DNA of 64,000 nucleotides from an uncultured bacterium (GCA_964634215.1 CAZWKR010000009.1:10764-74763); one strand, 5' to 3'. Shown: positions 3,128 through 64,000, numbered from the stretch's first letter. Notes: generated from the sequence alone by a model not told the origin. Numbers and translations are program-made.

Positions 3128-3130
3128 TAT

Positions 3131-6081: not shown

Positions 6082-6126
6082 AATTTATAATAAATATATT
6101 GTGAAACACAAGAAAGATATTAATTG

Positions 6127-12490: not shown

Positions 12491-12504
12491 TTATAGAGAA
12501 TATT

Positions 12505-12771: not shown

Positions 12772-12790
12772 CAAATTTATTTGCAATATA

Positions 12791-19781: not shown

Positions 19782-20797
19782 TATTTCACCTCCAATTTTG
19801 AATAGGCTTCAATTAGTTCGAGTATCCGTTTGGAAAAACTCCATCCATTATCATACCAACAGAGTGTTTTTAACAACTTTTCTTGAGTTATCATAGTTGC
19901 TTTTCCATCAAAAATCATTGTCTCACTTGTTCCTAATACATCAGATGAAACAATTGGATCATCGGTGTAACCGACGATTCCATTCAGCGAACCATCTGCA
20001 TATGATTTAATAGCTTCATTTAATTCCTTAACAGAAGGCATATTTTTTAATTCTGTTGATAGATCAACACAGGAGCCATCAGGAACCGGAACGTTAAGTG
20101 CCATACCGGCTAATTTACCTTTGAATTTCGGCATTAATTCGCCGACTAAGCGTGGCGATTCATTATCGTTAGGAATAATATTTTCCACTGCCGAGCGACT
20201 ACGTCGCAAATCAGAACGAACTGCATCAGCAAGCGGTTGATCAGAAGTATAAGCATGAATTGAGGTCATCATTGCTCTTTCAACACCGAATTTTTCATCG
20301 AGCATTTTGACCATTAATGCCAATACCTGCGTAGTTGATGACGTAACCGAAATCAGCTTATCGTCAGCATCAATTTCATCTTCATTGATTCCTGCAATGA
20401 CGATACGATCGCCTGCTTCTTCCGGTGGGACAGCAACGATTACACGTTTCGCTCCTTCATCAATATGTGCCTGCAAATCAGCACGATGATGATATTTGCC
20501 GGTTGCATCTATCACAAAATCAACATTATATGCATCCCAAGGAATACTTCCCGGTTTGCCACCTTCCAATAACCTGGTATTTTGATGACGCACCTTTAAA
20601 TAATTGCCATCAAGAACAACATTTTCTGTCATTGTACCATAAACGGAATCCCGCATTAGAAGATAATGCATTGCTTCCTGTTCACCCAAATCACTGATTG
20701 CCACAAAATCAAATAAAGGATTGTCATATCCTAATCGAAATAAATTCCGACCGATGCGACCAAAGCCCATTATACCAATTCTAATTTTCTTTTTCAT
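19781..20797 (-). CDS. GAPDH-like paralog lacking catalytic Cys (active-site-degenerate)
   Basis: The same fold and NAD motif (MGFGRIGR) are present. By manual alignment to the neighbouring gap, the active site reads SVTSSTTQVLAL (Cys to Ser, second Cys to Val), TTGAA is replaced by NDNES, and RVPV is replaced by NVPV. Its stop overlaps the gap start (TAATG). Confidence 0.8.
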   Translation of the reverse strand: MKKKIRIGIMGFGRIGRNLFRLGYDNPLFDFVAISDLGEQEAMHYLLMRDSVYGTMTENVVLDGNYLKVRHQNTRLLEGGKPGSIPWDAYNVDFVIDATGKYHHRADLQAHIDEGAKRVIVAVPPEEAGDRIVIAGINEDEIDADDKLISVTSSTTQVLALMVKMLDEKFGVERAMMTSIHAYTSDQPLADAVRSDLRRSRSAVENIIPNDNESPRLVGELMPKFKGKLAGMALNVPVPDGSCVDLSTELKNMPSVKELNEAIKSYADGSLNGIVGYTDDPIVSSDVLGTSETMIFDGKATMITQEKLLKTLCWYDNGWSFSKRILELIEAYSKLEVK

Positions 20798-31070: not shown

Positions 31071-32759
31071 TTATTTAATCAATAACATTTTTTTTGTTAA
31101 AGTGGTGCTATCTAGTATTAAATTATAAATATAAACTCCTGAGCTGACAGGATTTCCATTGTTGTCTGTTCCATTCCAAGCAATGCTCTTCATCCCGGGA
31201 GTTTCAATATGATTTGCTAACTTGATTACTTCCCGACCCAATATATCGTATATAATTAATTCTACATGAGATTTCTGTTTCAAATCATAGTCTATTGTTG
31301 TCGAGGAATTAAATGGATTTGGATAATTTTGGTATAATTCAAAAGTACCTGGAATCATAAAGTCTACCGCCATTAATGAATCAATATTTATATTTATTGC
31401 TTTCCATACATCAATTACACCATAACCATACACATTATTTGGAGTATCCGAGTTATTGGCGGTTGCCATTAGGGCAGCCCTCACCATCATAGGTGTCCAA
31501 GATGGATTAGCGCTTAATAATACTGCTGCTGCACCCGCTACTAATGGTGTTGATAAAGAGGTACCGCTCGCGAAACCATATGAAACACCATTACCAGATG
31601 CACTTGCGGTACTTACGCCCCTAGCACACACTTCAGGTTTAACTCTGCCATCATAAGAAGGACCATGCGAGCTAAAACCTGCTATTGTACCCAAATTATC
31701 TACAGCCCCAACAGATATTACCGAGTCAGCATCCGCTGGTGCGATGATATGATTCCATATGTCACCATTCTCGTTTCCTGCAGCAGTAACACATAACATA
31801 CCCATACTTGTTGCTATATCAACTGCTTTTGTTGTAACTGCAGTATCGCCATTCATATCTTCCCAAGTATACCAATCGGTGTAACCAAGTGATGATGAAG
31901 CAATATCTGCTCCAAGTATTTCACCCCATTCTAATGCTCGAACAAAGTGATCTTCCTCAATTTGAATTTCTTGATCATATATTTCAGTCTTTGCTAAAAG
32001 AAAATCTGCTCTGAAGGCAGGACCGACTAGTGTACCGGGGGCATATCCACCAAGTGCTGAAAAAGTGGCTGTCCCATGATTATGTTGGCTTGAGACATCT
32101 TGACCATCTTCATTTTTAGTGGTTGAATCATCATTTATCACATCCCATTCGGCAATCACATTTAGCGAATCGAAAACGGGATGGTCTAAATTATAACCGG
32201 TATCTAACATTAAAACTGTTACTCCTTGGCCATAAAATCCAGCATCATGTGCCGTAAGTACATTAATTTGTTCTAACTGCTCTTGTGCATTACCGTAATC
32301 AATATCACTTATTGATCCATATTTTTGTAAGCTTCTATTCGGTAGTGTTTCTTCAAAATTCTTGCGATGAAATAGATTTACAGATTTAATTTCCTTTACA
32401 AATGGCATATATGATATTTCGATCAATTCGTTTTCTGTGCATTCAATTGAAACTGCGTTTAACCATCTGCTTTTATTTCTGAGTTTTGCTCCTGTATTTA
32501 TAACTTTATTAATATAATCCCCAGATGGACTTTGATCGTACCACTCGTAATTTTTATTTGGGTTTACCTTATTACGTCTATTTAATGTTTTCTGAGAAAT
32601 AGTTGGTTTCTCAATACTTTTAGTTTTGTCAACAAAATATATCCATGCATGGTATTTACCATTATCTCGAATTGCAGAGTCCATTTTTTGCAATTGATGT
32701 ACTTGTCCATGGGAAAAAAATGATAATACAAAAAAGATTGTTATAATATATTTATACAT
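31071..32759 (-). CDS. Secreted S8 (subtilisin-family) serine peptidase with T9SS C-terminal sorting domain
   Basis: Signal peptide. Catalytic triad contexts are MLDTGY (Asp), HGTATFS (His) and SGTSLSTPLVAG (Ser). The C-terminus YQNYPNPFNSSTTIDY...GVYIY is a T9SS type-A CTD. Confidence 0.85.
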   Translation of the reverse strand: MYKYIITIFFVLSFFSHGQVHQLQKMDSAIRDNGKYHAWIYFVDKTKSIEKPTISQKTLNRRNKVNPNKNYEWYDQSPSGDYINKVINTGAKLRNKSRWLNAVSIECTENELIEISYMPFVKEIKSVNLFHRKNFEETLPNRSLQKYGSISDIDYGNAQEQLEQINVLTAHDAGFYGQGVTVLMLDTGYNLDHPVFDSLNVIAEWDVINDDSTTKNEDGQDVSSQHNHGTATFSALGGYAPGTLVGPAFRADFLLAKTEIYDQEIQIEEDHFVRALEWGEILGADIASSSLGYTDWYTWEDMNGDTAVTTKAVDIATSMGMLCVTAAGNENGDIWNHIIAPADADSVISVGAVDNLGTIAGFSSHGPSYDGRVKPEVCARGVSTASASGNGVSYGFASGTSLSTPLVAGAAAVLLSANPSWTPMMVRAALMATANNSDTPNNVYGYGVIDVWKAININIDSLMAVDFMIPGTFELYQNYPNPFNSSTTIDYDLKQKSHVELIIYDILGREVIKLANHIETPGMKSIAWNGTDNNGNPVSSGVYIYNLILDSTTLTKKMLLIK

Positions 32760-35278: not shown

Positions 35279-35941
35279 TTAGTTTTGTATTGAATAGAAT
35301 GTCTTATATATTTGTCGTAATCTGCCTGCTGTCATTCCGATTCCATAAATTATTATGCAATAGAATAATAAGTTTGAATTCAAAGCCCAATCAACTATTG
35401 CTAACATCGTTATCACATTCATAGAATCTGGATAACGAAAAAGGGATTGAATAAATCCTCGTCTTTTAATATCTAATCCACTGTTAGTTGATGAAATGAT
35501 TTTTTCGGTTTTTATTGTAAATAATGCCGCTAGAAATCCAGCTATAAGCGTTAAAATCTGTCCGGTCTCTAAAAATAGACCCAACCCTAATCCAAAATAG
35601 TAAAATGGGATTACTATCATATGCCCAATTAAGTCCAAGAATTTTCCGCTTTCACTCTGTTGGTTTTTCCATCTAGCTACTTCGCCGTCGCTACAATCTA
35701 AAATGTATCCTAGTTGTAAAAACAATGCTCCCAAGACATATCTTCCAAAACCAAATAGAATTGCTCCAATTACACCTAATATCTCCTGAAGAATTGTTAC
35801 TTGGTTTGCAGAAATTGGTGTTCGAACAAATACCCATGTAAATAAAATGGAAATTGGTCTTACTACATATTTGGCGTACGGTTCAGGTTCAACATCCTTT
35901 TGAACAATTTTTTTAAGATTTTTTAATGTTGGGCCAGTCAT
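35279..35941 (-). CDS. CDP-alcohol phosphatidyltransferase-family membrane enzyme (DIPPS-like small form)
   Basis: Signature D-CS-DG-EV-AR-x8-G-KFL-D-LIG-H: the family motif DxxDGxxAR..G...D...D with the last Asp replaced by His (manual alignment). About 6 TM. It overlaps the upstream nucleotidyltransferase by 4 nt. Confidence 0.75.
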   Translation of the reverse strand: MTGPTLKNLKKIVQKDVEPEPYAKYVVRPISILFTWVFVRTPISANQVTILQEILGVIGAILFGFGRYVLGALFLQLGYILDCSDGEVARWKNQQSESGKFLDLIGHMIVIPFYYFGLGLGLFLETGQILTLIAGFLAALFTIKTEKIISSTNSGLDIKRRGFIQSLFRYPDSMNVITMLAIVDWALNSNLLFYCIIIYGIGMTAGRLRQIYKTFYSIQN

Positions 35942-36666
35942 TTATAAAAAACACTATCTATTAACGATTTAGCTTCTTCAAAATCTTCTAAAAAATCAAT
36001 TTCTTTGCTTGGCAGATCTGACACATCTTCGTAATAGAGTGCATTTTCTGATAACAACGGGTCAATCGCAGCTTCAAAATAATCCGATTTACCTCCTGCA
36101 TAAATCAGATTGTTCAAAGATTCAAAAAACTCTTTCATAAACACATCTGAAAATTTAGCAACGCCGATAAATTCCCCTAACGAATTTTCTTCTATTAGTT
36201 TTTTCCCTATCGCAACAATGCGATTATTCTCACCTTCTATGACCTTAACCTCCTCCTGACCACATTGTTTAATTTCAACTGCTAGGAGATTTTTTTGTTT
36301 TGAAACTACTAAGCGTTTTAGTAACTCGATTGGAAACAACACATCTGCATTCATTAATAAGATATCATCATCACGGGCAATTTCTTGACACAACCATACT
36401 GAATAAGAAGTATTTGTTTCAAAAAAATGATGATTGGTTATTACTGATAATTTAAAATCACTATGGTTTTTATTAATATGATCAATGAACAACTCTTTAT
36501 AGTAACCTAATACAAGTACTATTTCAGATATACCTATTGATCTTAATGCATCTAATTGATAGTCAATTATTGGTTTATTATTAATTTTCAGTAAACTTTT
36601 TGGTGTGTCCAATGTTAATGGATACAACCTACGGGACACTCCAGCTGCTAGGATTATTGCTTTCAT
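35938..36666 (-). CDS. Nucleotidyltransferase (LicC/IPCT-like alcohol- or sugar-phosphate cytidylyltransferase)
   Basis: N-terminal MKAIILAAGVSRRLYPLT...PKSLL is the NTP-transferase signature. 242 aa. Confidence 0.75.
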   Translation of the reverse strand: MKAIILAAGVSRRLYPLTLDTPKSLLKINNKPIIDYQLDALRSIGISEIVLVLGYYKELFIDHINKNHSDFKLSVITNHHFFETNTSYSVWLCQEIARDDDILLMNADVLFPIELLKRLVVSKQKNLLAVEIKQCGQEEVKVIEGENNRIVAIGKKLIEENSLGEFIGVAKFSDVFMKEFFESLNNLIYAGGKSDYFEAAIDPLLSENALYYEDVSDLPSKEIDFLEDFEEAKSLIDSVFYK

Positions 36667-36675
36667 GCCATAAAT

Positions 36676-37818
36676 TTACGCAGTATTTGTGCTCACATTC
36701 TCTGAAAGAATGTCATCAATTATCATTTTTATTCTATTTGACGTTTTACCATCACATTTATAAAAATATTTTTCCTTATCTTGCATTACGTTATCAATCC
36801 TATCTTGCGTTGGATTTAATGCATTATAAATAGCATCTTTTAACTGTAAAGGAGAATCTATATGAATAAATGAATTCTTTAGGAATTTATCATCGCGTAA
36901 TAGTAGCGGTTCATCATCAGTATGTTTCAAATTATTATCATTTAAGTCATAAACTATACCAACTTTATTAGTAATTAAGAATTCTGAAATAGCACCCGAT
37001 GCCTCTGAAATAATAGTATCAGCAACAGCATACAACGGAACAATATTATAGTTGTCACGAGGAATTAATACAGCATGATCATACTGCGATATTCTTTTTT
37101 TAACACTCTTGCTCTGATTGCGATTAGCATATTTACCCATCCATGAATAATGATGAAGCTTGATAATTAAATTATAATCTTTTGTAGCATTAAATATTTC
37201 GTCCTTTAAATCATATAACGAAGTCGGTTTATACGTTGGTGCATAAAGGATTGTTTTCTTGCCATGATCAAGGCCAAGCTTGGATAATATTTTTTTCTTA
37301 TTAAACTTGTTATTAATAATAGGATCTATTTTTGGAAAGCCTACAATTTTAGTTTCTGAAGAACCAAGGCAATCTGCATCGGTTAGTTTATCGACTGCAT
37401 ATTGGCTTTCTGCAAATATTAAATATTTATCGTTTTTATGTTTTCTCAGTTCCCTAAATGTAACAGATTTATTAAAGATCGGACCATGATAAATCATACA
37501 AATTATACTACTCTGATAATTGCTGCCTTTCACTACATCTGAAACAAAAACAACATCGAACTTTTCATTTTTTTTTGCTGTTCTTACATTGTTATCGATA
37601 AATTTTTTTAAATACTCCTTATTTTTTTTTCTCCTAAATATTCCAAAATGATAATCAAAATCATGAGATAATGTAACTGCAATATCATAGCTTTTATCAT
37701 GACTAAATATTTCAATTACCGGTTCTAATGCAGGTAAATGGTATAAATAATTTAATTTGAATAATATTTTTTTTGATTTGGTCATTTCTATTGGGAGACT
37801 AACTGTCGAGTTTTCCAT
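36676..37818 (-). CDS. CDP-glycerol glycerophosphotransferase family protein (TagB/TagF-like)
   Basis: Glyphos_transf hallmarks are present: ILYAPTYK, HHYSW, and ISEASGAISEF near the C-terminus. An alternative start at 37785 (MTKSKK) would remove the 31-nt overlap with the upstream gene. Confidence 0.75.
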   Translation of the reverse strand: MENSTVSLPIEMTKSKKILFKLNYLYHLPALEPVIEIFSHDKSYDIAVTLSHDFDYHFGIFRRKKNKEYLKKFIDNNVRTAKKNEKFDVVFVSDVVKGSNYQSSIICMIYHGPIFNKSVTFRELRKHKNDKYLIFAESQYAVDKLTDADCLGSSETKIVGFPKIDPIINNKFNKKKILSKLGLDHGKKTILYAPTYKPTSLYDLKDEIFNATKDYNLIIKLHHYSWMGKYANRNQSKSVKKRISQYDHAVLIPRDNYNIVPLYAVADTIISEASGAISEFLITNKVGIVYDLNDNNLKHTDDEPLLLRDDKFLKNSFIHIDSPLQLKDAIYNALNPTQDRIDNVMQDKEKYFYKCDGKTSNRIKMIIDDILSENVSTNTA

Positions 37819-38813
37819 CTATTCAATTTATCAATCATATTAAATTTATTTTTAGATGGTCGTCCATTTGTCAAAATATTAGATACTGCATCTACCATTC
37901 GCTCGGATGATTTACCATCATTATATGGGTGTAATTCATCGAGATAAAACATGCGACTATCTTTAAATTCATCCGGGTCATTAAGTGCACGAACTATTGC
38001 CCCTTCTAAATCTAAGGATGAAAAAATATTAATTCCTTTATCGACTCGGGTTTTGGCGTTAAATGTTATTATAGGTTTGTCAAAAAGTAGGTATTCATAT
38101 GCAACAGACGATGTATCCGTTAGTAAAACATCCGATTCAGACATATTTCGCAATATAGTGTGATCAGTAACCATTCTGAAATTATCACTCTCTAAAAATT
38201 TATATTGTTCTACCAACCGATCATCCATTAATTCATGAAACTTAATAATCCAGTTATAATCAAGATTTTGGAGAGATTTTATCGTATCGAAAAGTTTATA
38301 GGCAGAAGTTAGTTTTTTACTAAAGGTAGGAGCATATAGAATTGTTGGATAATTGTTTTTAAATATTGACGATTTGAAATCCTCCCAAGTATTTCTATCG
38401 TCTAATTTAGGCCAGCCTGTTTCTATAATTATATATTTTCCATTTTTGTTTTTATTTTTAAATTTATTAGTAATAAATGGACCTGGTGTACAGTACACAT
38501 CAAAAAGTCCATTTAGACGGTAATGGCCATGTTTTTCTTCACCTAAACCATGAAATATTTGAATTTTAAGTCCAGACCAATGAGATGGTACGACATTGCC
38601 TGGTGCAAATATTACATCTGGATTGTATTGCATTACCTTTTCATTTGTCTCTAGCCAAATATCTTTTTTTAATCCAAAGCGATTATTAGTAGTAGAAAAC
38701 CAATACACTTCTCCACGATCATTATTTAAAATTAAATCGTATAATGGTTTTAATATTGGATATGAATAATCCTTTGTTAAGAAAAGTAAATATTTAGTTG
38801 CTTTATTAGCCAT
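37788..38813 (-). CDS. CDP-glycerol glycerophosphotransferase family protein (TagB/TagF-like), second copy
   Basis: ILYAPTFS, KFHE and LLTDTSSVAYEYLLFDKPII match the TagF-family C-terminal catalytic domain. Confidence 0.75.
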   Translation of the reverse strand: MANKATKYLLFLTKDYSYPILKPLYDLILNNDRGEVYWFSTTNNRFGLKKDIWLETNEKVMQYNPDVIFAPGNVVPSHWSGLKIQIFHGLGEEKHGHYRLNGLFDVYCTPGPFITNKFKNKNKNGKYIIIETGWPKLDDRNTWEDFKSSIFKNNYPTILYAPTFSKKLTSAYKLFDTIKSLQNLDYNWIIKFHELMDDRLVEQYKFLESDNFRMVTDHTILRNMSESDVLLTDTSSVAYEYLLFDKPIITFNAKTRVDKGINIFSSLDLEGAIVRALNDPDEFKDSRMFYLDELHPYNDGKSSERMVDAVSNILTNGRPSKNKFNMIDKLNRWKTRQLVSQ

Positions 38814-38947
38814 TTAAGTAATATCGAATCAATTGCTTCACCGGAAACTATATGAACCAAGTATTCTTGATGTTACTAAATAATTAGTAATAACATATTG
38901 TAACCTGGTAAATTTACCCTACTTGATTAAGTATACAAATTTTCTTA

Positions 38948-39949
38948 ATGAAAAAAGTTACAAAAAACAATAGACCAATATTTATTGTGGGTTGTGAAAG
39001 GTCTGGCACCACAATGTTAAGATTAATACTTCATTCCCACGCAAATATTGCGATACCGCCTCAAACTAAATACGTAAAAAAAATTTACAAACGGAGAATA
39101 TTTTTTGGCAATTTATCAAAACTAAAAAATCGAAATAAAATTATTCATTGGTTTTCTAATAATCATAACAAAAAAACAAAAATTATTGATTTAGGTCTAG
39201 ATCCAAATGATATACAAAATGAGATGATGAAATCCGGTGATAGTTTAGGTTCAATTTTATCAACAATATTTCAACTCTATTCTAATAAACTTAATAAAAA
39301 TCGTTGGGGAGATAAACATCCCTATTATATTAAATATCTAGATCAATTATTTAATCTTTTTCCCGATGCTCAGGTTGTCCATATTGTTCGTGATGGACGT
39401 GATGCAGTTGCATCATTAAAAACAATGCCGTGGTGGAAAAATGATAGTATTTATTCTATGTTAAATTGGCAGGAAGCCATTTCTAATGGTAAAAAAGCTA
39501 AATTAAAATATAAATCTAATCAATTTATTGAAATACGATATGAAGACATAATTGATGAACCTGAAAAACATATTAAATCATTATGCAGTTTTCTCGATGA
39601 AAAATATTCACCAAAAATGTTAGAATTTTATAAAATTGCAGATGCAGCAGTACCCAATTATAAAATGGGTTGGCACTCAGATACAAAATCACAAATGAGT
39701 TCTAAGAAAATTGGTCGTTGGCAAAAAGATTTAGAACCTTGGGAATCAAATTTAATGAATCGCAAAATGAAGAAAGAATTATTACAACACAATTATGAAA
39801 TACCCAATTTCCACGGTAAAATTCCATTTTGGAAGTCAATTAATTATTTAATAATTAAATTACACTATAAAATAACTCAATATACGCTGTTGATAGCAGA
39901 TAAGATTATGACCATATTTTATCCTTGGTCACTGGATTATAGAAAATAG
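38948..39949 (+). CDS. PAPS-dependent sulfotransferase family protein
   Basis: 5'-PSB loop CERSGTTML and 3'-PB motif VRDGRDAVAS. 333 aa with a hydrophobic C-terminal tail. It is the only plus-strand gene inside the minus-strand polymer locus. Confidence 0.75.
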   Translation: MKKVTKNNRPIFIVGCERSGTTMLRLILHSHANIAIPPQTKYVKKIYKRRIFFGNLSKLKNRNKIIHWFSNNHNKKTKIIDLGLDPNDIQNEMMKSGDSLGSILSTIFQLYSNKLNKNRWGDKHPYYIKYLDQLFNLFPDAQVVHIVRDGRDAVASLKTMPWWKNDSIYSMLNWQEAISNGKKAKLKYKSNQFIEIRYEDIIDEPEKHIKSLCSFLDEKYSPKMLEFYKIADAAVPNYKMGWHSDTKSQMSSKKIGRWQKDLEPWESNLMNRKMKKELLQHNYEIPNFHGKIPFWKSINYLIIKLHYKITQYTLLIADKIMTIFYPWSLDYRK

Positions 39950-39953
39950 ACAC

Positions 39954-40694
39954 TTAATTAGTTATATTTGAAAATAACTTTTCGGCATTCTTCAGATCCT
40001 CTTCAGTATCAATTTCATACCAAGCTGTTTTATTAAAATTTACTGCTTCTAATAAAAATTTATTTTCTGATACGGCTTTTGCTATAGCTTGTTCATAATA
40101 TACATGTTTCTGCCCGGATTCTATTAAATAATATAAGTTCGGCTCGACAAATTTGTTAAATGAATTATAACTAAAACTATAAATATTGACGGTTTTATAA
40201 AGATTGTAAATATTGTCTTTTGGGAACTTATCTGCTTTTAAAATAAACTCAATTACATTATTTTTCTTATCAATATCAATTAGAGTACCATCCATATATT
40301 GTTTGTAATTATCAACGGCTATTCTATCAGGTAATAACATATTTTTGAACGCATCCCAAGTAAAAATTAAATCGCCCTCAAGTAGTATAAAATCTTCCTT
40401 GATATACGGGACTGCGAGGTTTAATGAGACAACATTATTTGTAGTTTCCCAATCTTTGTTGTGTACATACTGAATAGTCATATCACCATAATTATTGCCC
40501 ACAAGAGATTGTATCTTTTCACCTTTATAACCAATAACTAAAATAACTTTTTCAATTCCGCCTAATTGCAAAAATTCAAGCATTCTGATTAAAAGAATTT
40601 GATTATTTACAGGTATTAAACACTTTGGAATTTCGTTAGTATAAGGTTTTAATCTAATTCCACCACCCGCCAGTAAAAACACTGCTAATTTCAT
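39954..40694 (-). CDS. Nucleotidyltransferase (LicC-like cytidylyltransferase), second copy
   Basis: MKLAVFLLAGGGIRLKPYTNEIPKCLIPV is the NTP-transferase signature. 246 aa. Confidence 0.7.
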   Translation of the reverse strand: MKLAVFLLAGGGIRLKPYTNEIPKCLIPVNNQILLIRMLEFLQLGGIEKVILVIGYKGEKIQSLVGNNYGDMTIQYVHNKDWETTNNVVSLNLAVPYIKEDFILLEGDLIFTWDAFKNMLLPDRIAVDNYKQYMDGTLIDIDKKNNVIEFILKADKFPKDNIYNLYKTVNIYSFSYNSFNKFVEPNLYYLIESGQKHVYYEQAIAKAVSENKFLLEAVNFNKTAWYEIDTEEDLKNAEKLFSNITN

Positions 40695-40700
40695 TCGGTA

Positions 40701-41324
40701 TTATTTCTTCTTCTTTGGTTTATGATCCGAATAAATAATTGCACCATCATCTTTTGCAAATCTCCACTTTTTCTTAGGTGTTTTCCAATCCCCGTAACGA
40801 AATTGCAAATATTCTTCTTTTTTAACAGGTAAAAAATAATCGTTATTGTTAAAATTTACTTTTTCTAAATCATCATAAAAATGCGCCGGGACTGCTTTTT
40901 TAGTGTATTTTCGTTCACCGCCACAAGACCAAATATATTGGTCGTTATTTTTTGTGGCAATGAAGCAATCCATCATAACCTCACCTTTAAAAAATAATTT
41001 CTTCTTACTGAAAACCTTAATTAACCGAGCTTCACCTTTTTTCAATGGTGGATCTTCTTTTTCTTGATATCTAACTCGAGTAATATATCCAGCTTTTTTC
41101 ATTTTAGATAATGATTTAAGCAACTTCTTGCGGTCTTCGCTAAATACTCTTAAATCCATATCTCTATCCCAGGGTAGCAATCTATCCTCCCTTACTATTC
41201 CAAGCAAAGTACCAGCGGTTACAGAATATTTTATATTCGACTCGTCAAAGATTGTTGTTACATCTTTTAACATTTTTAAAGCAATCTTAAGATTTTCACC
41301 CGTGAGTGTATATTTACCAGACAT
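40701..41324 (-). CDS. LicD-family phosphotransferase (phosphocholine / polyol-phosphate transferase family)
   Basis: The LicD motif TAGTLLGIVREDRLLPWDRDMDL is present, including the DxD. Confidence 0.75.
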   Translation of the reverse strand: MSGKYTLTGENLKIALKMLKDVTTIFDESNIKYSVTAGTLLGIVREDRLLPWDRDMDLRVFSEDRKKLLKSLSKMKKAGYITRVRYQEKEDPPLKKGEARLIKVFSKKKLFFKGEVMMDCFIATKNNDQYIWSCGGERKYTKKAVPAHFYDDLEKVNFNNNDYFLPVKKEEYLQFRYGDWKTPKKKWRFAKDDGAIIYSDHKPKKKK

Positions 41325-41333
41325 ATCTATTTA

Positions 41334-42425
41334 TCACATAATTTGTTCTAGTAATTGATGTACATCTTCTTTACTTATTTTTATAACGTTATTGGAGATT
41401 CTGCTTTTAGTGAATGATCTCTCAACTATTTCATCGATATTTTCGCTTTTAATTCCCCACTTACTTAAATTAAAATCAATTACATTCTTTGGAATGTCTA
41501 GTATTTGTTTTTCCAATTCTTCGTAATTAATATTTACAAATGATAATAATTTATTGATTTCATCTGCAATTGCTTCTTTATTCAACCGTAATAAAGGAAT
41601 AATTGGTAAGGAACAGGCAATTCCATGTGGTATGTTATAAGTAAAAGTTAATGGATAACTAATAGAATGTGCTGCTGCGGTTTTTGTATTTGAAAATGCT
41701 AATCCTGCCAAATTAGATGCTCTTAATAATTTTGTTCTAACTTCTAGATCTGTGTGATTTTTTTTCAGTTTTGGTATTTCTTCAATGATCAATTTAATAG
41801 ATTTATATGCATACTCTAAAGATTGAGGATTAGAATTTTTATTCCAAATTGTTTCGAAACTATGGCTTAACGCATCCAAAACTGTTATTATTGAGAGTTG
41901 GATATCCATAGTAACAGTCAATTTTGCGTCTAAAATTGCTATGTCAGGATATAACGAGAGATGAGAAAGAGAATATTTTTGCTTCTCTTCCATATTCCAT
42001 ATTGCTCCCCACATTGTAACTTCACTTGCAGTCCCATGCGTGGTGGGTATAAAAATTGCAGGAATACGATTTGGAAATTGTGTTTCATAATCTATTAATT
42101 CTCTTAATTCGTAAACATTAGTACCTATTGCAGCCATCATAACTTTTGCTGTATCCATTACAGATCCGCCACCTAAAGCAATTATACCATCACATTTTAC
42201 ATTCTTCACAAAATTTATTGCTTCTTCACAACTCACAAATGTAGGATTATTTTGAATGTCTGTAAAAATGCGTTCCATATTAATAACATCTGATAGTTGA
42301 TTCCTCTCAACATTTCCTTTAGATGTTACAAACAAGGGATTCTGGATATTTAGTTCCTGTTTACATTTCTCAAGAGTACGTTCCCAATCATGAGTCTCTA
42401 TTATTTTTACTGGATTATTATACAT
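41334..42425 (-). CDS. Iron-containing (group III) alcohol dehydrogenase family protein
   Basis: GGGSVMDTAK nucleotide motif plus the His-rich metal site (LSHSFE, AAAHSISY, PHGIA). 363 aa. Confidence 0.75.
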   Translation of the reverse strand: MYNNPVKIIETHDWERTLEKCKQELNIQNPLFVTSKGNVERNQLSDVINMERIFTDIQNNPTFVSCEEAINFVKNVKCDGIIALGGGSVMDTAKVMMAAIGTNVYELRELIDYETQFPNRIPAIFIPTTHGTASEVTMWGAIWNMEEKQKYSLSHLSLYPDIAILDAKLTVTMDIQLSIITVLDALSHSFETIWNKNSNPQSLEYAYKSIKLIIEEIPKLKKNHTDLEVRTKLLRASNLAGLAFSNTKTAAAHSISYPLTFTYNIPHGIACSLPIIPLLRLNKEAIADEINKLLSFVNINYEELEKQILDIPKNVIDFNLSKWGIKSENIDEIVERSFTKSRISNNVIKISKEDVHQLLEQIM

Positions 42426-42455
42426 TTATATTCTGGTTACAGATAACTTATTAAA

Positions 42456-44291
42456 CTATTTGTTAAACTGATATTCATACAACCTTTTATACAAGCCACC
42501 TTTATCTAAAAGGTCTTTATGTGTTCCTGATTCTGCGATTTGTCCTTTTTCTAGAACAATTATTTTATCTGCTTTTTGAATTGTTGAAAGTCGATGAGCA
42601 ATAACTAACACTGTTCTATCATTCATTAATCTTTCTAATGCTTCTTGTACAAGTTTTTCTGACCGGGTATCCAATGATGATGTTGCTTCATCCAAAATTA
42701 AAATTGGAGGGTTGTCCAATACGGCTCGTGCAATTGCTAGCCGCTGTCTTTGTCCACCCGATAATCGCACACCTTTATCACCGATTATTGTGTCAAAACC
42801 ATTCGGTTGTTCTAGAATGAAATCGAGTGCGTTAGCAGTTTTGGCGGCAGAAATTACCTCATTGTCATTAACATTAGGCAATCCATAAGCAATATTGGCA
42901 CGTATTGTATCATTAAATAATATTGTTTCTTGTGTTACAATTCCCATTAGCTTGCGCAACGATTTTGTTGATACATTTCTTAAATCATTTCCATCAATTG
43001 ATATTACCCCATCAGTCACATCATAAAATCTCGGTACAAGATCAGCGATCGTAGATTTACCGGCACCACTTTCACCAACTAGTGCAACTACCTCGCCCTT
43101 CTTAATTGTAAAAGTGACATCCGATAATATTATATCTTCATAGTTATTATATGCGAAACTCACATTATTAAACTCAATTGTGTTTTTAAAAGAATCCAAA
43201 TGTTGTGCATCTGGATGGACAAAAATATCTGATTTAGAATCTAACTTTCCAAATACACGTTCAGCAGATGCTAAACCAGTTTGAATTTCCATATTCACAT
43301 TGCTCAATAATCTGATAGGTGCTAATGCACTAAATAGGACCAAGATGAATCGTAAAAAATCTTCCGAAGTCATAGATTGATCTACTAGCACTTTGTTTCC
43401 ACCAATAATAATTAAGACAGCCGCTACACAAACTCCGATAATTTCTGTTAACGGTACTGCTAAAAGACGTAATCTTGCTCGATGTAGTATTAATTTAAAA
43501 AATTTAAATGTCTCTTTTTGAAATCGTTGGTTTTCAAAATTTTCAGTTGTAAAAGCTTTTACTATACGTATTGAGTTTAATGTTTCGGTATTGACGTTTG
43601 TAATATCGGCAATTTTTGCCGCAATGCGACGCGACTTTCGTCTGACACTTCGCCCAATGGTGGTTATTGCAACACCCGTTATGGGGACAATTAATATGGC
43701 AATTAACGCCAATTGTGTATTAATGATAAATAATAAAACAATAAATGCAATGATATTAAGCGGTTCAACAAATGCTCGCTGAAAACCGACAGTAAATGCA
43801 CGACGCATGTTGCTCACGTCGGTTATTATTATAGAAGTCAGCTCACCGGATTTTTGTTTGTTGAAAAATGATAATGAAAGTGAAAGATATTTTTTATACA
43901 GATTATTTCTGAGTGTGGTGATAAAATTATATTGAACATGTGTTATTAATATATTTTTAATATATAGGAATAGATTTTTTAGCAGAAAAACAATTATAAT
44001 TAATATAGATAGAACTTTTAATGTTTCAAATGCTGTATCGCGAAGAATGAAATTGTTTGTCCAATACTTAAATTGTTGATTTAAACTTAAATCTACAGCA
44101 TTTTTAAAGGTTTCATGCTCGGATAAAAATTCTTGAAAATTACCCAGAATACTATTTAATAACGATGCAGTAAACCAAATAGATGCGCTATTAAATGCAA
44201 CATAGAATAGTGCCGCTAAAGTGGACCCGGTAAGGTATGGCCAATACGGTTTAATCAACCTCAGTAATCGTTTATATATAGATTCGTTCAT
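42456..44291 (-). CDS. ABC exporter, fused TMD-NBD half transporter (MsbA-like)
   Basis: 611 aa. An N-terminal 6-TM domain is followed by Walker A GESGAGKST, signature LSGGQRQR and Walker B ILILDEATS. Confidence 0.85.
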   Translation of the reverse strand: MNESIYKRLLRLIKPYWPYLTGSTLAALFYVAFNSASIWFTASLLNSILGNFQEFLSEHETFKNAVDLSLNQQFKYWTNNFILRDTAFETLKVLSILIIIVFLLKNLFLYIKNILITHVQYNFITTLRNNLYKKYLSLSLSFFNKQKSGELTSIIITDVSNMRRAFTVGFQRAFVEPLNIIAFIVLLFIINTQLALIAILIVPITGVAITTIGRSVRRKSRRIAAKIADITNVNTETLNSIRIVKAFTTENFENQRFQKETFKFFKLILHRARLRLLAVPLTEIIGVCVAAVLIIIGGNKVLVDQSMTSEDFLRFILVLFSALAPIRLLSNVNMEIQTGLASAERVFGKLDSKSDIFVHPDAQHLDSFKNTIEFNNVSFAYNNYEDIILSDVTFTIKKGEVVALVGESGAGKSTIADLVPRFYDVTDGVISIDGNDLRNVSTKSLRKLMGIVTQETILFNDTIRANIAYGLPNVNDNEVISAAKTANALDFILEQPNGFDTIIGDKGVRLSGGQRQRLAIARAVLDNPPILILDEATSSLDTRSEKLVQEALERLMNDRTVLVIAHRLSTIQKADKIIVLEKGQIAESGTHKDLLDKGGLYKRLYEYQFNK

Positions 44292-46456: not shown

Positions 46457-47131
46457 TCATGGTTTCCAAGTAATTGGATAGATTGATTCACCAAATATGC
46501 CAACTTTTGCTCTATAAAAATATCTGAGGTCTTTTTTTACAAAAGGTGCTTCGTGACTTTCCCCATCATGGGTATCACCAAAATAATTTCCGCCATATTC
46601 TTTTAATGAAGCATTACTTCGCACGATGCGTACCGGATGAACATCGGCTTTAATAGCGGCGATTATATCGGTATCGGAATCACCGTAATAAATATCCAAA
46701 CCGAGTTTTTCCATGACACGATGTTTGGTTGTGTACTTAAATCCGTCCACATATTCCTTATGTGAGAAAAACAGATTACTATCAACTTTTACATCAAAAT
46801 TTAGGTTTTCAGAAAGGAAGACTGCCACGCTATCGCCATTTGGTCCTGGACGGGCAGTTATAAAGAATACTTCGTGACCATTTGCTCTAAAATAGTTGAT
46901 AAGCGTAACAACTGGATCAATAAATAACGAATATTCCTTATCATGAGTATTAATCCAGGAATAATCAGTACGACCGCTTTCAGTTTTAGGCGCTACGACA
47001 AAGGCGCGCTCTGAATATAAAGTTGTATCGTCTATATCAAATCCTACTTTCAATTTTCCGGTCTGCGAGAATGGAATTGAACTGATAAATAAAAATATTA
47101 AAATTTGTTTTATAATTAATCTTTTAAACAT
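46457..47131 (-). CDS. Class B acid phosphatase-like HAD-superfamily phosphatase (AphA-like), secreted
   Basis: Signal peptide. HAD motif I is FDIDDTTL and motif IV is YGDSDTDI. Confidence 0.7.
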   Translation of the reverse strand: MFKRLIIKQILIFLFISSIPFSQTGKLKVGFDIDDTTLYSERAFVVAPKTESGRTDYSWINTHDKEYSLFIDPVVTLINYFRANGHEVFFITARPGPNGDSVAVFLSENLNFDVKVDSNLFFSHKEYVDGFKYTTKHRVMEKLGLDIYYGDSDTDIIAAIKADVHPVRIVRSNASLKEYGGNYFGDTHDGESHEAPFVKKDLRYFYRAKVGIFGESIYPITWKP

Positions 47132-48345: not shown

Positions 48346-49224
48346 ATGATACAAAGATATTATCAAATAATCTCTTTAATTTTTCTAATTGTATTACCAA
48401 TACCCGGAGAAACCCACACTGTTAGCAACCAACAAAGAAATGAATTTGGAATAATCCTGATCAACGATGCATTATTTCAAACCGATAAAGATAACACAGG
48501 ATCATTTGGCGTATTTTATAAATTTAAGTTATATCCACTATCAATTAAATATCAGATCGATGCCTACACACCAAACGCTAAATATAAAGAATTAACAGTA
48601 CCTAAAGAGGGTATGCATCCTTATGCAGGATTTGGATTTATAGGAACAGAATATAAAATTCAAAATAATAATTTCTTACTTTGTTTGTGTATGCAATTGG
48701 GTGCAACCGGTAATAAGTCTCTTGCGAGAGAACTACAAGACATAACACATAACAGCCTTAATCAATCTACATTTGCAGGTTGGGATTCACAAATTCAAGC
48801 AAAATTCGGCTATATATTCAATCCACAACTAGAATATATCTTCAACACAGAATATTTTACACTTTTACCTGCTATTAGTGTGAAAATTGGTAATCTGATA
48901 TCTACACAAACTATTGGAATACAGCTCATTAGTGGTATTAATTATAATAAGGACTTTCTTTTTACTAATTTTTCAAAGAAATCAAATTATAATATTTTTA
49001 TATCATATGAAATTTCTAATATTTCTAAAAATGTATTCTTAACGGGTTTTGAGGGATATAAATATGGTGTTAATATTATTAATACTGTTTGCGAATTAAA
49101 AGTTGGAATGGATATTCAGTTCATGTCATACGGTGTTACAATTCAGAACCATTATAGAAGCAGTGAATATAAATCGCAAAATGATAATAAATTCACTACT
49201 ATAGTCATTTATTATAAAATTTAA
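48346..49224 (+). CDS. Outer-membrane protein, possible lipid A deacylase LpxR family (DUF2219-like)
   Basis: N-terminal hydrophobic signal. INDALFQTDKDNTGSFG resembles the ENDxx..DRxYTnG start of LpxR-family barrels, and ITHNSL....AGWDSQ resembles its central motif. This is from memory and was not searched. Confidence 0.45.
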   Translation: MIQRYYQIISLIFLIVLPIPGETHTVSNQQRNEFGIILINDALFQTDKDNTGSFGVFYKFKLYPLSIKYQIDAYTPNAKYKELTVPKEGMHPYAGFGFIGTEYKIQNNNFLLCLCMQLGATGNKSLARELQDITHNSLNQSTFAGWDSQIQAKFGYIFNPQLEYIFNTEYFTLLPAISVKIGNLISTQTIGIQLISGINYNKDFLFTNFSKKSNYNIFISYEISNISKNVFLTGFEGYKYGVNIINTVCELKVGMDIQFMSYGVTIQNHYRSSEYKSQNDNKFTTIVIYYKI

Positions 49225-58578: not shown

Positions 58579-59727
58579 ATGTCTAAACAGCAGATTAAAC
58601 AAGCTTTTGCTGAAAATATAGCACAGAACTTTGATGCTTACGGATTTTCCCGTCGTGATTTCATTAAATTCTGTACGGCAATCACTGCTACAATGGGTTT
58701 ACCATTCAGCATGTCTAAATTGATTGCAAAAACAATTGAAGACCCCGCACGACCACCGGTTATTTGGTTGCATTTTCAAGAATGCACAGGATGTACAGAA
58801 TCACTTTTACGAGCAACACATCCAAAAGTTGAAACTCTTGTATTAGATCTAATTTCCTTGGATTACTCAGAAACACTATGCGCTGCTGCCGGACATCAGG
58901 TTGAGAAATCATTGCATGATTCCATGGAGAAAAATAAGGGTAAATATATATTGGTGGTTGAAGGTTCAATACCAATGAAAGATGATGGAATTTATTGTAA
59001 GGTAGCTGGTAAAACAGCTTTACAGTCCGTAAAGGAAGTCGGTGAACATTGCGCAGCCGCAATTGCGATTGGTTCATGCGCGTCATGGGGCGGAGTACAA
59101 TCAAGCGGACCAAACCCAACAGGTGCTACACCACTCCATAAAGTTCTCGAAGGTAAACCTATTATTAATATACCTGGCTGTCCACCTAATCCATACAATT
59201 TCCTTTCGACAGTTTTGTATTACTTGACTTTAGGAAAACTACCGGAGCTTGATTCTAAAGGTAGGCCAAAATTTGCTTACGGCAGATTAATCCATGAAAA
59301 TTGCGAACGGCGTCCGCATTTTGATGCTGGTAGATTCGCAGACCAGTTTGGCGATGATGGTCATCGTGAAGGATGGTGTTTATACAAACTCGGCTGCAAA
59401 GGACCAGAGACATATGCAAATTGCCCATCTATCTTATTCGGTGATGTTGGCTCAGGTTCTTGGCCTGTTGGCACTGGACATCCATGTTTTGGTTGTTCTG
59501 AAGAAGGTGTGGGTTATACCAAACCGATACATGAACAAGCTGAAGTAAAGACATTTACACCGGGAGCAATTTATCCCGATATACATTCTGAGAAAAAAGG
59601 CGGTGTGAATGTAACAGGAGCGGCAGTTACTGCCGGAGCAGCAGTGGTTGGAGCAAAGCTGGTATCCGACGTATCAAAAAAATTGGGTGAGCACGACCAA
59701 AAAGAATCTTCAACTACTAAATCATAG
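58579..59727 (+). CDS. hybO: [NiFe] hydrogenase small subunit (Tat-exported, C-terminal membrane anchor)
   Basis: Twin-arginine signal SRRDFIKF. FeS ligand motifs are present: ECTGCTES, GSCASWGG, PGCPPNP, CERRPHF, C.YKLGCKGP, GHPCFGCSE. Hydrophobic C-terminal tail. AAGGAGG RBS. Confidence 0.9.
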   Translation: MSKQQIKQAFAENIAQNFDAYGFSRRDFIKFCTAITATMGLPFSMSKLIAKTIEDPARPPVIWLHFQECTGCTESLLRATHPKVETLVLDLISLDYSETLCAAAGHQVEKSLHDSMEKNKGKYILVVEGSIPMKDDGIYCKVAGKTALQSVKEVGEHCAAAIAIGSCASWGGVQSSGPNPTGATPLHKVLEGKPIINIPGCPPNPYNFLSTVLYYLTLGKLPELDSKGRPKFAYGRLIHENCERRPHFDAGRFADQFGDDGHREGWCLYKLGCKGPETYANCPSILFGDVGSGSWPVGTGHPCFGCSEEGVGYTKPIHEQAEVKTFTPGAIYPDIHSEKKGGVNVTGAAVTAGAAVVGAKLVSDVSKKLGEHDQKESSTTKS

Positions 59728-59736
59728 GAGGAAGTT

Positions 59737-60726
59737 ATGAGTATTGGTAGAAGAGATTTCTTTAAGGTGATTTCGGCCGGTGCTGTTACTGCAGCTACAG
59801 CCGGTTCGGTATTTGCCCGCGAAAAAAAGACACTAGCGCCTGATGCTGTCGGCATTCTTTACGACGCTACACTTTGTATTGGTTGTAAAAATTGTGAACG
59901 TGGCTGTAAAGAATATAATGATATGCCGATTGAACAAACGGATAGAGTTGATGATTTGAATGTACCCAAAATATGGGACAATTCAGATGATCTTACAGCA
60001 AAAACACTGAACAAGATCAAATTATATCGCAATGGTAATGCTTCAATCAAAGATCGTGAAGCAGATGGATATTCATTTGTGAAACGCGCCTGTATGCATT
60101 GCGTAGATCCGGATTGTGTATCGGCTTGCCCGGTGACCGCATTAAGCAAAGATGAGGTAACAGGAATTGTTACCTATGATGAAAAAGCATGTATCGGTTG
60201 CCGATATTGTCAGGTAGCATGTCCGTTCAATGTTCCCAAGTTTGAATGGGACGAAGCATTTCCGAAAATTGTAAAATGTCAAATGTGCGAACATAAACAA
60301 GAGGAAGGCGGAATTCCCGGATGCTGTTATTATTGTCCGACCGGCGCTTCAATGTTTGGTAAAGTAGAAGATTTGTTGGATGAAGCACATCGGCGAATTC
60401 AATTAGCTGAAGGTACATACTACGATTTTCCAATCCGTAGTATGGATTCGGATCAAAAATCCACTTTAAAAGCAAAAAAGTATGTTAATTATGTTTATGG
60501 AGAAAAGGAAACCGGCGGTACACAATATATGGTTTTAAGCGCTGTTCCATTCCATAAATTGGGATTACCAACATTACCGGAAAGTTCATCATCCTCAAAA
60601 TCCGAAACAATACAACATACAATATATAAAGGATTGATCGCACCCGGAGCATTATTAGCAGGACTACTCGTTGCAGCATATCATGGTACCAAATCACATA
60701 ATGAAAGCGAAGAAGGGAGGTCATAA
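59737..60726 (+). CDS. hybA: HybA-like 4Fe-4S ferredoxin-type electron-transfer subunit (Tat signal, C-terminal TM)
   Basis: GRRDFFKV Tat motif. Four CxxCxxCxxxC-type clusters (CIGCKNCERGC, CMHCVDPDCVSAC, CIGCRYCQVAC, CQMC...C.YC). TM helix near the C-terminus. Confidence 0.85.
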   Translation: MSIGRRDFFKVISAGAVTAATAGSVFAREKKTLAPDAVGILYDATLCIGCKNCERGCKEYNDMPIEQTDRVDDLNVPKIWDNSDDLTAKTLNKIKLYRNGNASIKDREADGYSFVKRACMHCVDPDCVSACPVTALSKDEVTGIVTYDEKACIGCRYCQVACPFNVPKFEWDEAFPKIVKCQMCEHKQEEGGIPGCCYYCPTGASMFGKVEDLLDEAHRRIQLAEGTYYDFPIRSMDSDQKSTLKAKKYVNYVYGEKETGGTQYMVLSAVPFHKLGLPTLPESSSSSKSETIQHTIYKGLIAPGALLAGLLVAAYHGTKSHNESEEGRS

Positions 60727-61874: not shown

Positions 61875-61885
61875 GGAGTTTAGCA

Positions 61886-63601: not shown

Positions 63602-64000
63602 CCCGGCAGATGTAACAGTACTCGGGATTGGCAATTTATTGATGGGGGATGAAGGTGTTGGTATTCATTTAATACGAACATTAGAAGAATCTTACACCTT
63701 CTCCCCTTTCATTAATTTAATTGATGGTGGTACAACAGGGTTGGATCTTATTCCCTATTTCGAAGAGTGCAAGAAAATGATAATTGTTGACGCAGTTGAC
63801 TCTCAGGAAAAACCTGGATATATTGAAACACTTTATAATGAAGAAATTCATTATAAATTTAACACAAAACTATCTTTACATCATGCCGGTCTATCCGATG
63901 TTTTGAGTGTAATAAAACTGCAAGGGATTGCATCACCTGATATGATGCTGTTAGGGATTCAACCGCTAAAAGTGGAAATGGGTCTAGAACTAAGTGATGT
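63570..64000 (+). CDS. hybD: Hydrogenase maturation endopeptidase (HybD/HyaD family), partial, 3' end outside window
   Basis: My own translation (not in the ORF track because it runs off the window): ...VTVLGIGNLLMGDEGVGIHLIRTLEE...LIDGGTTGLDL...MIIVDAV...SLHHAGLSDVL. There is no in-frame ATG upstream of GIGN. GTG 63570 is the nearest canonical start (alternatives are GTG 63528 and TTG 63510), so the start is uncertain. Confidence 0.8.
   Translation, partial: MSKHYLDSQVSPADVTVLGIGNLLMGDEGVGIHLIRTLEESYTFSPFINLIDGGTTGLDLIPYFEECKKMIIVDAVDSQEKPGYIETLYNEEIHYKFNTKLSLHHAGLSDVLSVIKLQGIASPDMMLLGIQPLKVEMGLELSD

Follow-up and report, generated by a model that had tools for sequence, protein, structure and literature searches.

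What does a diderm bacterium make with two cytidylyltransferases, four phosphotransferases and a sulfotransferase encoded side by side next to an MsbA-like exporter gene? This question is raised by nine consecutive genes at 35279-44291 of a 64,000-nucleotide stretch of DNA from an uncultured bacterium (GCA_964634215.1 CAZWKR010000009.1:10764-74763), which was analyzed whole and is called the window below. Open reading frame (ORF) calling on the window reproduced the nine gene boundaries of a first-pass annotation exactly, and a Pfam profile search placed all nine proteins in the families that it had named, every hit scoring above its gathering threshold. The answer that we favor, at a probability of about one half, is a hypervariable envelope-glycolipid tailoring locus beside the gene for the lipid A-core flippase, which would add phospho- or phosphono-alcohols and sulfate to a glycolipid flipped by MsbA. 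A protease with a type IX secretion system (T9SS) sorting domain (31071-32759), together with the best genomic matches, which are to a Candidatus Neomarinimicrobiota single-cell genome (75-90% protein identity) and then to other Marinimicrobia/Fidelibacterota, assigns the source genome to Marinimicrobia (SAR406), a diderm phylum of the Fibrobacteres-Chlorobi-Bacteroidetes (FCB) group. Marinimicrobia rank with the most abundant of the dark ocean's uncultured bacteria; to our knowledge, nothing is known of their envelope chemistry.

Comparison with relatives reveals that the nine genes occupy a slot whose borders are kept while its interior varies. The anchors, a GNAT gene with msbA on the left and a malic-enzyme gene on the right (or, where this is absent, an S8 protease and housekeeping genes), are retained in loci L001, L002, L003, L004, L041, L046 and L047, and beyond the right anchor follows a series of beta-lactamase-fold, endonuclease III, PTPS, Vut_1, GTP cyclohydrolase, LipB, LipA and Lon genes. 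In the window itself the flanks are likewise housekeeping, with GNAT, TolB-like and HemW genes at one end of the locus and genes for malic enzyme, Lon, lipoate and folate at the opposite end. Variant A, found in the window, L001, L002 and L040, consists of an iron-type alcohol dehydrogenase (FeADH), a short LicD, the cytidylyltransferase NTP1 and a sulfotransferase, then the TagF-like pair TagF_B and TagF_A, then a second cytidylyltransferase (NTP2) and a cytidine diphosphate (CDP)-alcohol phosphotransferase (CDPOH); among the slot loci the sulfotransferase occurs in this variant only. Variant B (L041, L003 and L004) has a long LicD, a cytidylyltransferase-phosphoenolpyruvate (PEP) mutase fusion, phosphonopyruvate decarboxylase and FeADH, followed by TagF_B and TagF_A, and variant B' (L047) has the same genes plus CDPOH. 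Variant C (L046) has inositol-1-phosphate synthase, a nucleotidyltransferase resembling inositol-1-phosphate cytidylyltransferase (IPCT), a third TagF-like gene, TagF_B and TagF_A, followed by NTP2, CDPOH and FeADH.

The contrast between flank and interior is best seen against L047, which has the highest flank identity among the loci that reach those flanks (L001 is closer inside the locus but stops short of them). Flank proteins of the window and L047 are 76-95% identical (GTP cyclohydrolase 93%, Vut_1 95%, malic enzyme 89%, MsbA 80%), whereas inside the locus FeADH shares only 58%, TagF_B 46% and TagF_A 50%, and the two loci differ in gene content. High identity in the flanks, low identity between them and a different cassette together indicate allelic replacement of a surface determinant, and on these comparisons the slot is a cassette-swapping hotspot. 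The first-pass annotation had called the locus exchangeable on account of its composition; the claim is borne out by comparative genomics, which supports it far better than GC content does. The flanks and msbA are conserved and the interior is swapped between variants. The first pass had overlooked both the phosphonoacetaldehyde-reductase-like FeADH and the PEP mutase/decarboxylase or inositol-phosphate-synthase cassettes that relatives carry in the slot. In L047, the malic-enzyme gene (11949-14209) is called in three pieces and several other genes are fragmented, probably through assembly indels rather than biology.

The AT-rich core at 36.7-41.3 kb is real, with 29.1% GC versus 34.1% for the whole window (lowest 2% of 4.6-kb windows); the contrast of 22% versus 35% first given for it does not hold, having come from two unrepresentative 60-nt lines, and such lines inside the core range from 17 to 40% GC with a median of 30%. 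Core third-position GC (GC3) is 0.228 versus 0.251 ± 0.036, within one SD of the other genes. Horizontal transfer argued from composition alone was rejected, the dip being small and GC3 unexceptional. A search for mobile-element signatures at the locus returned short AT-rich chance repeats only, with no tRNA adjoining and no mobile-element genes at its borders.

The locus consists of two minus-strand units divided by an opposite-strand gene. The first, msbA-FeADH-licD-NTP1, ends tail-to-tail with the plus-strand sulfotransferase gene, and the second, TagF_B-TagF_A-NTP2-CDPOH, begins past a 134-bp divergent spacer between the sulfotransferase and TagF_B (38814-38947, from ORF coordinates and sequence), which presumably holds its promoter region. 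The gene content listed at first pass stands; the single msbA-headed operon read from it does not. The genes are contiguous, with gaps of 4-30 bp or overlaps. A sigma-70 scan gave 65 sites versus 59.5 expected and was uninformative, and the promoter and terminator scans did no better than shuffled sequence. As had been claimed, no glycosyltransferase (GT-A/GT-B), Wzx/Wzy, ABC-2 exporter or secretin was found among the ORFs scanned, which span about 0.7-63.6 kb and do not include every ORF.

The connection from this slot to lipopolysaccharide (LPS) is made through TagF_A (36676-37818, minus strand, 380 aa), a PF04464 (Glyphos_transf) protein at 48.1 bits (cut-off 22.1). A direct sequence search against solved structures gave no match, and a fold search was required. 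The AlphaFold model (predicted local distance difference test 88.6, predicted template-modeling score 0.88) has TagF 3L7I as its best PDB match (template-modeling score 0.70), with TarL 8VA1 and the capsule polymerases 8QOY and 8A0C as further matches, at 12-18% identity to solved members across the structural alignments; the predicted fold is thus the GT-B-like TagF fold. Invariant across 14 orthologues from several phyla are H111-G112, APTxKPT, KLHH (K-L-H222-H223) and SEAS. Identities of 38-44%, with a mean column identity of 62%, extend across Marinimicrobia, Gemmatimonadota, Eisenbacteria, Delongbacteria and Zixibacteria-labelled genomes, and the profile finds 66 matches at E<=1e-30 among 1.84 billion cluster representatives; judged by sequence, TagF_A is a narrow, strongly conserved orthologous group that crosses phyla. 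Its listed ORF overlaps that of TagF_B by 31 nt, and since most aligned orthologues begin at or shortly past Met12 (about 37785), this residue is the probable start. TagF_B (37788-38813, minus strand, 341 aa; PF04464 63.2 bits, cut-off 22.1) matches the C-terminal half of TarL 8VA1 (E=9e-4), has FHG, LYAPT, K-F-H and DTSS..YE invariant in nine orthologues and is classed as specific to Marinimicrobia. The catalytic-histidine motifs (equivalents of TagF His444, WHG-type, and His584) are present in both proteins at motif level, the residue equivalence following the description in PMC11666461.

Outside the SAR406 slot, the neighbors of TagF_A are LPS-core genes in four or more FCB phyla, a setting seen in Gemmatimonadota, Eisenbacteria and further Marinimicrobia. 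A GT9 homologue lies no more than 10 kb from TagF_A in 25 of 39 genome loci and directly adjoins it in 16, and Pfam confirmed GT9 in all seven that were sampled. L043 has a GT9 heptosyltransferase, TagF_A and an LPS (3-deoxy-D-manno-octulosonic acid (Kdo)/WaaP) kinase-family gene (PF06293) in that order, with a sulfotransferase, a sulfatase, a PEP mutase set and an MsbA-like gene in the vicinity; L007 and L008 have MsbA and then TagF_A-GT9. A Gemmatimonadota chromosome has the series epimerase, MsbA, nucleotidyltransferase, TagF_A, several GT4, methyltransferase and GT9, and Gemmatimonadales have GT9, nucleotidyltransferase and TagF_A with, some 4 kb off, an MsbA-like gene in divergent orientation. 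TagD-type and TarI/TarJ-type genes were not found in the locus, the partners being LicC/IPCT-type enzymes. The nucleotidyltransferase that adjoins TagF_A in Gemmatimonadota (L019, 9257-9973) is IPCT-like (124 bits), which hints at CDP-inositol as the donor for the TagF subfamily in that phylum, and with the inositol-1-phosphate synthase, IPCT-like nucleotidyltransferase and third TagF-like gene of L046 (5905-8989) it suggests that there may be TagF-fold enzymes that use CDP-inositol. We know of no description of such use. With TagF_A orthologues beside GT9, LPS-kinase-family and MsbA-like genes, the first-pass picture of a polymerase pair making a surface polymer goes unsupported, a polymer being possible.

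The MsbA-like protein, a fused ABC exporter (42456-44291, minus strand, 611 aa; PF00664 128 bits, PF00005 111 bits), is encoded in synteny and is 60-90% identical in all Marinimicrobia variants. Its gene stays in place beside every type of cassette, and the protein is probably the ordinary lipid A-core flippase rather than the dedicated polymer exporter, heading the locus, for which it had been taken. It scores 513 bits against TIGR02203 MsbA (cut-off 602) and 509 bits against HepA_fam and also matches PglK, and its best half-transporter structures are Sav1866 (362 bits) and MsbA (343-355 bits). In an alignment with Escherichia coli MsbA it shows 36% identity, with K105 and R327 at the positions of R78 and K299 and V175 at that of R148, and it has an insertion of some 40 residues between the first and second transmembrane segments (TM1 and TM2). 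MsbA orthology is plausible on these comparisons. Four kilobases from the locus lies a gene for an LpxR-like outer-membrane lipid A 3'-O-deacylase (48346-49224), whose presence suggests that lipid A is both made and remodeled in this organism. A gene for a class B acid phosphatase (46457-47131) occurs close to the msbA end of the slot not only in the window but also in L041 and L046.

The enzymes that would supply the head group point to small phosphorylated or phosphonylated alcohols. FeADH (41334-42425, minus strand, 363 aa; PF00465 (Fe-ADH) 116 bits, PF25137 (ADH_Fe_C) 117 bits) is phosphonoacetaldehyde-reductase-like: its best NCBIfam model is TIGR03405 Phn_Fe-ADH, at 244 bits versus a cut-off of 424, and the FeADHs encoded directly behind PEP mutase and decarboxylase score 249 (L047) and 243 (L041) bits and that of variant C 234. 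It is 46-58% identical to the mutase/decarboxylase-adjacent orthologues, and an 80%-identical orthologue carries the NCBI name phosphonoacetaldehyde reductase. NTP1 (39954-40694, minus strand, 246 aa; PF00483 29 bits) has LicC 1JYK and PntC 6PD1 as its nearest solved relatives, tied at 46 bits, the PntC match being full length, and its Glu106 and Glu201 align with PntC Glu104 and Glu196, which contact the amine of aminoethylphosphonate (AEP) (PMC6697681). NTP2 (35938-36666, minus strand, 242 aa; PF00483 (NTP_transferase) 61 bits, PF12804 (NTP_transf_3) 52 bits) is nearest to LicC 1JYK (a full-length match of 73 bits), carries Asn and Glu at the two amine-contact positions and is 69-86% identical in L001, L002 and L046. 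Both are assigned to the LicC type that acts on small-alcohol phosphates, not to the sugar-1-phosphate type, in keeping with the two independent activating enzymes that had been predicted.

The relatives give these enzymes a phosphonate context. The Fom1 cytidylyltransferase-PEP mutase fusion makes cytidine monophosphate (CMP)-2-hydroxyethylphosphonate (PMC6697681), and the combination of such a fusion with a decarboxylase and FeADH follows the Fom1/Fom2/FomC logic, so that variants B and B' very probably attach hydroxyethylphosphonate. Searches with tblastn using the L041 and L043 queries found no PEP mutase or decarboxylase in the window or in the 10 kb past its right end, nor was an inositol-phosphate synthase or HAD hydrolase found in the window. 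The right-hand unit looks like a phosphonate-tailoring set in which the step that forms the C-P bond has been lost or is kept elsewhere; alternatively, it may now handle a phosphate-ester analogue. One survey includes Marinimicrobia among the marine phosphonate producers (PMC9381506).

Two further transferases complete the first unit and its opposite-strand neighbor. The short LicD-family phosphotransferase (40701-41324, minus strand, 207 aa; PF04991 58 bits, cut-off 22.6) has the acidic motif of the nucleotidyltransferase fold (LLPWDRDMDL) and shares about 30% identity with the long LicD of relatives that carry a phosphonate cassette, the comparison being with the active second domain of that protein. 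The long LicD (L047, 4108-5310) consists of two tandem LicD-like domains, with the acidic motif PWDYDAD in the second only. The sulfotransferase (38948-39949, plus strand, 333 aa), whose presence had been correctly reported, matches PF13469 (Sulfotransfer_3) at 133 bits (cut-off 27) and PF00685 at 40 bits and appears intact, with RSGTT and RDGRD stretches in its translation that we take to be the 5'-PSB and 3'-PB motifs for binding 3'-phosphoadenosine-5'-phosphosulfate (PAPS).

We propose that small alcohol phosphates or phosphonates would be formed at the cytoplasmic face of the inner membrane, where FeADH, by homology, would reduce a phosphonoacetaldehyde-type aldehyde, and that NTP1 and NTP2, whose family is clear and whose substrates we infer, would use CTP to activate the alcohols as CMP/CDP conjugates. 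Transfer to a lipid-anchored acceptor would then fall to four phosphotransferases that represent three mechanistic classes (TagF_A and TagF_B, LicD and the membrane protein CDPOH). The acceptor would most likely be, through guilt by association with the orthologues, the Kdo/heptose inner core of lipid A-core, and the sulfotransferase, PAPS-type by family and motifs, would add sulfate. Lastly, MsbA would flip the decorated glycolipid, which would follow the ordinary LPS route to the outer membrane; export in this manner would explain why Wzx/Wzy, an ABC-2 transporter and a secretin are lacking. The head-group cassette would be swapped among Marinimicrobia lineages in the manner of a serotype determinant, with relatives probably using CMP-2-hydroxyethylphosphonate (from the PEP mutase cassette) or CDP-inositol (from the inositol-phosphate-synthase cassette) in the same slot. 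We favor single or short additions over chains because lone TagF_A-nucleotidyltransferase pairs occur in core clusters and because both TagF-like proteins (341-380 aa) are, we take it, nearer in size to the single-transfer enzymes TagB/TarF than to full-length TagF. There are precedents for such chemistry: the PF04464 enzyme Cps7A adds one glycerol-phosphate to the Kdo of a capsule glycolipid, which the LicD-family Cps7C extends (Litschko et al. 2024, PMC11666461), and the LicC/LicD and PntC logic is one of cytoplasmic surface tailoring, with LicC/LicD tailoring of lipooligosaccharide being classical (Rice et al. 2019, PMC6697681).

Several observations weigh against this proposal. GT9, Kdo transferase, LPS kinase and other LPS-core genes were not found in the 64-kb window, so that the link to LPS rests on orthologues in other genomes. 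Since the window has no PEP mutase or decarboxylase, we leave the substrate of its FeADH unassigned. The MsbA-like protein falls under the TIGR02203 cut-off and finds in Sav1866 a match no worse than in MsbA. A locus with four phosphotransferases but no glycosyltransferase is compatible with the building of chains as well, and CDPOH with a LicC-type enzyme also resembles, by analogy, a Kennedy-type phospholipid pathway (PMC9246714).

Chain building is the essence of the alternative that survives best, a lipoteichoic-acid-like polymer in a diderm, which resembles the first-pass view and which we nonetheless regard as unlikely. In this scheme CDPOH would make a diacylglycerol or polyprenol primer, TagF_B would prime, TagF_A and/or LicD would polymerize a poly(alcohol phosphate or phosphonate), the sulfotransferase would cap the chain and a dedicated PglK/HepA-type flippase would carry it across the membrane. 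The scheme accounts for four phosphotransferases and two activating enzymes in a locus with no glycosyltransferase, and for an ABC protein that scores as high with HepA_fam as with MsbA and also matches PglK. LicD-family and TagF-family enzymes are able to polymerize polyol phosphates (PMC11666461), and 2-hydroxyethylphosphonate has a free hydroxyl through which it could in principle be chained. The TagF_A subfamily also occurs in giant fusions that resemble polymerases: its profile matches proteins P0378, P0391 and P0407, of 1,700-3,200 aa, which combine GT2, GT4 and two or three PF04464 domains and look like multi-enzyme glycopolymer polymerases. However, TagF_A in other phyla stands alone with one nucleotidyltransferase in GT9/GT4 core-type clusters, which fits a single decoration better; variant B (L041, L003 and L004) lacks CDPOH, the would-be source of the primer, yet keeps both TagF genes; both TagF-like proteins are nearer in size to the single-transfer enzymes TagB/TarF than to full-length TagF; and no route by which such a lipid would reach the outer membrane is encoded here.

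CDPOH itself (35279-35941, minus strand, 220 aa; PF01066 42.3 bits, cut-off 22) suggests a different division of labor, namely, a mosaic of separate functions in which msbA is housekeeping, NTP2 and CDPOH form a Kennedy-type pair (for an inositol-, ethanolamine- or phosphonate-type lipid, for example) and the TagF pair, LicD, NTP1, FeADH and sulfotransferase are an unrelated set that decorates a glycan or protein-glycan; we hold this to be improbable. CDPOH is classed as a divergent PF01066 member. Its signature reads DxxDGxxAR-x8-G-xxxD-xxxH where D(x)2DG(x)2AR(x)8G(x)3D(x)3D is expected, the fourth Asp being replaced by His; the variant is kept in L046 (11857-12516) and L047 (11141-11776), and the subfamily seems largely confined to Marinimicrobia/Fidelibacterota. 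In line with a mosaic, the nucleotidyltransferase-CDPOH pair has its match in an alternative cluster for inositol lipids that has been proposed in Bacteroides vulgatus and Prevotella (PMC9246714), the top NCBIfam models of CDPOH are archaetidylinositol-phosphate and di-myo-inositol-phosphate-phosphate (DIPP) synthases (all scores far under the equivalog cut-offs), and CDPOH is 70-79% identical across cassette variants versus 46-61% for the TagF genes, as would be expected of a housekeeping lipid enzyme. There are also at least two transcription units. On the other hand, the genes are tightly packed and co-travel in the same slot across variants, and MsbA-like genes and TagF_A are linked in several phyla. 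CDPOH homologues, too, are found in a GT9 cluster: a 50%-identical homologue in a complete Fidelibacterota genome (L048) lies in the series GT2, methyltransferase, GT4, GT9, GT2, nucleotidyltransferase, CDPOH, CDPOH.

A bolder version of our proposal, which we put forward only as speculation, is that the dedicated TagF subfamily, LicD and the His-variant CDPOH might build undescribed, FCB-wide teichoic-acid-like chains of phospho- or phosphono-alcohols directly on an MsbA-flipped anchor (lipid A-core or diacylglycerol), with serotype-like swaps between SAR406 lineages. The chain units could be oligo(2-hydroxyethylphosphonate), inositol-phosphate or, in the window variant, a sulfated C2/C3 alcohol phosphate. 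If true, abundant deep-ocean bacteria would be a direct source of hydroxyethylphosphonate esters in marine dissolved organic matter.

Two other schemes can be set aside. A group-2-type capsule or classical wall-teichoic-acid pathway, in which TagF-like and LicD enzymes do occur, is very improbable and was rejected, as this is an FCB-group diderm and the defining primer and export genes (KpsMT/KpsSC/KpsDE, TagO/TagA, TagGH) were not found among the scanned window ORFs or in the syntenic loci examined. As remarked at first pass, the layout matches neither textbook locus. A remnant of a small-molecule, fosfomycin-like phosphonate pathway is suggested by the Fom1/Fom2/FomC-like trio of relatives (cytidylyltransferase-PEP mutase, decarboxylase and FeADH) and is just as hard to credit, since the window has no PEP mutase, decarboxylase or later fosfomycin-type tailoring enzymes and the neighboring enzymes (LicD, TagF-like) are transferases for surface tailoring, a setting known from phosphonoglycan and phosphonolipid clusters (PMC6697681).

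Elsewhere in the window, two tandem pairs within 2378-9182, each of an MMPL/RND-type transporter (3131-5437 and 6894-9182) and a LolA-like protein (2378-3127 and 6127-6897), are possibly lipid or lipoprotein export modules. Two neighboring same-strand glyceraldehyde-3-phosphate dehydrogenase paralogues lie at 18780-20797. A NiFe hydrogenase large subunit is encoded at 61886-63601, followed past the window end by the maturation genes HycI and HypA/B/F/C/D/E (L045), and GC climbs to 0.40-0.44 in this stretch (58579-64000).

If a glycolipid-tailoring locus is the correct reading, the nine genes and their sister cassettes predict exchangeable anionic head groups on surface glycolipids, be they phosphonate, inositol-phosphate or sulfated phospho-alcohol. 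This would bear on the origin of marine 2-hydroxyethylphosphonate esters, and hence on aerobic formation of ethylene and methane by C-P lyase, as well as on phosphorus economy and on recognition by phage and grazers. Teichoic-acid enzymology would be extended to the tailoring of diderm LPS by a narrow TagF subfamily that accompanies LPS-core genes in four or more little-studied phyla. A literature search found no published description of this gene set, of TagF-like enzymes in LPS-core clusters or of Marinimicrobia envelope polymers. What is new here is CMP/CDP-alcohol surface tailoring of known kinds in an undescribed combination and context, and not a new category of system.

Among the known systems, the Lic pathway, which places phosphocholine on lipooligosaccharide, and its phosphonate counterpart, the Pnt pathway, share with this locus a LicC/PntC-type cytidylyltransferase that adjoins LicD and the tailoring of a surface glycoconjugate at the cytoplasmic face, and NTP1 retains both of the Glu residues that contact the AEP amine in PntC. 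Unlike a lic1 operon, the locus has neither LicA kinase nor LicB transporter in or adjoining it; unlike the Pnt pathway, it is not accompanied in the window by a PEP mutase, a decarboxylase or an aminotransferase, FeADH supplying an alcohol instead; and it adds three more phosphotransferases and a sulfotransferase to either scheme. The likeness to Fom1/Fom2/FomC lies in FeADH, which matches TIGR03405 equally well as the FeADHs that follow the mutase fusion and decarboxylase in the identical slot of relatives; the difference is that the window variant lacks mutase and decarboxylase and that its downstream enzymes are transferases, not antibiotic-tailoring enzymes. With IPCT/DIPP synthase and the Bacteroides vulgatus-type inositol-lipid cluster (Heaver et al. 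2022, PMC9246714) it shares the NTP2-CDPOH pair, the inositol-phosphate-type models that CDPOH matches best and, in the L046 slot, inositol-1-phosphate synthase beside an IPCT-like enzyme; it differs in having no inositol-phosphate synthase or HAD hydrolase in the window and in the His that ends the CDPOH signature. The exporter resembles MsbA as a fused ABCB-type protein (transmembrane and nucleotide-binding domains in one chain) for which MsbA is the best NCBIfam model, two of the three positions that contact lipid A being basic, and departs from it in scoring under the curated cut-off, in its about equal similarity to Sav1866/HepA-type proteins and in the insertion of about 40 residues between TM1 and TM2.

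The TagB/TagF/TarF/TarL enzymes and Cps7A/Cps7C have in common with the TagF-like pair PF04464, the GT-B TagF fold (as predicted for TagF_A), the HG histidine and a second His motif, as well as the pairing with a LicD-family enzyme and a cytidylyltransferase, while TagF_A has SEAS in place of the DxSS motif. From wall-teichoic-acid and capsule systems the window locus is set apart by the lack of a TagO/TagA primer pathway, of KpsS/KpsC and of a TagGH or KpsMT exporter, and also by the LPS-core neighbors of TagF_A in other phyla. The window holds neither a PEP-mutase cluster nor an LPS inner-core cluster of its own; an LPS inner-core cluster does surround the TagF_A orthologues of L043, L007, L008, L019 and Gemmatimonadales and the CDPOH homologue of L048.

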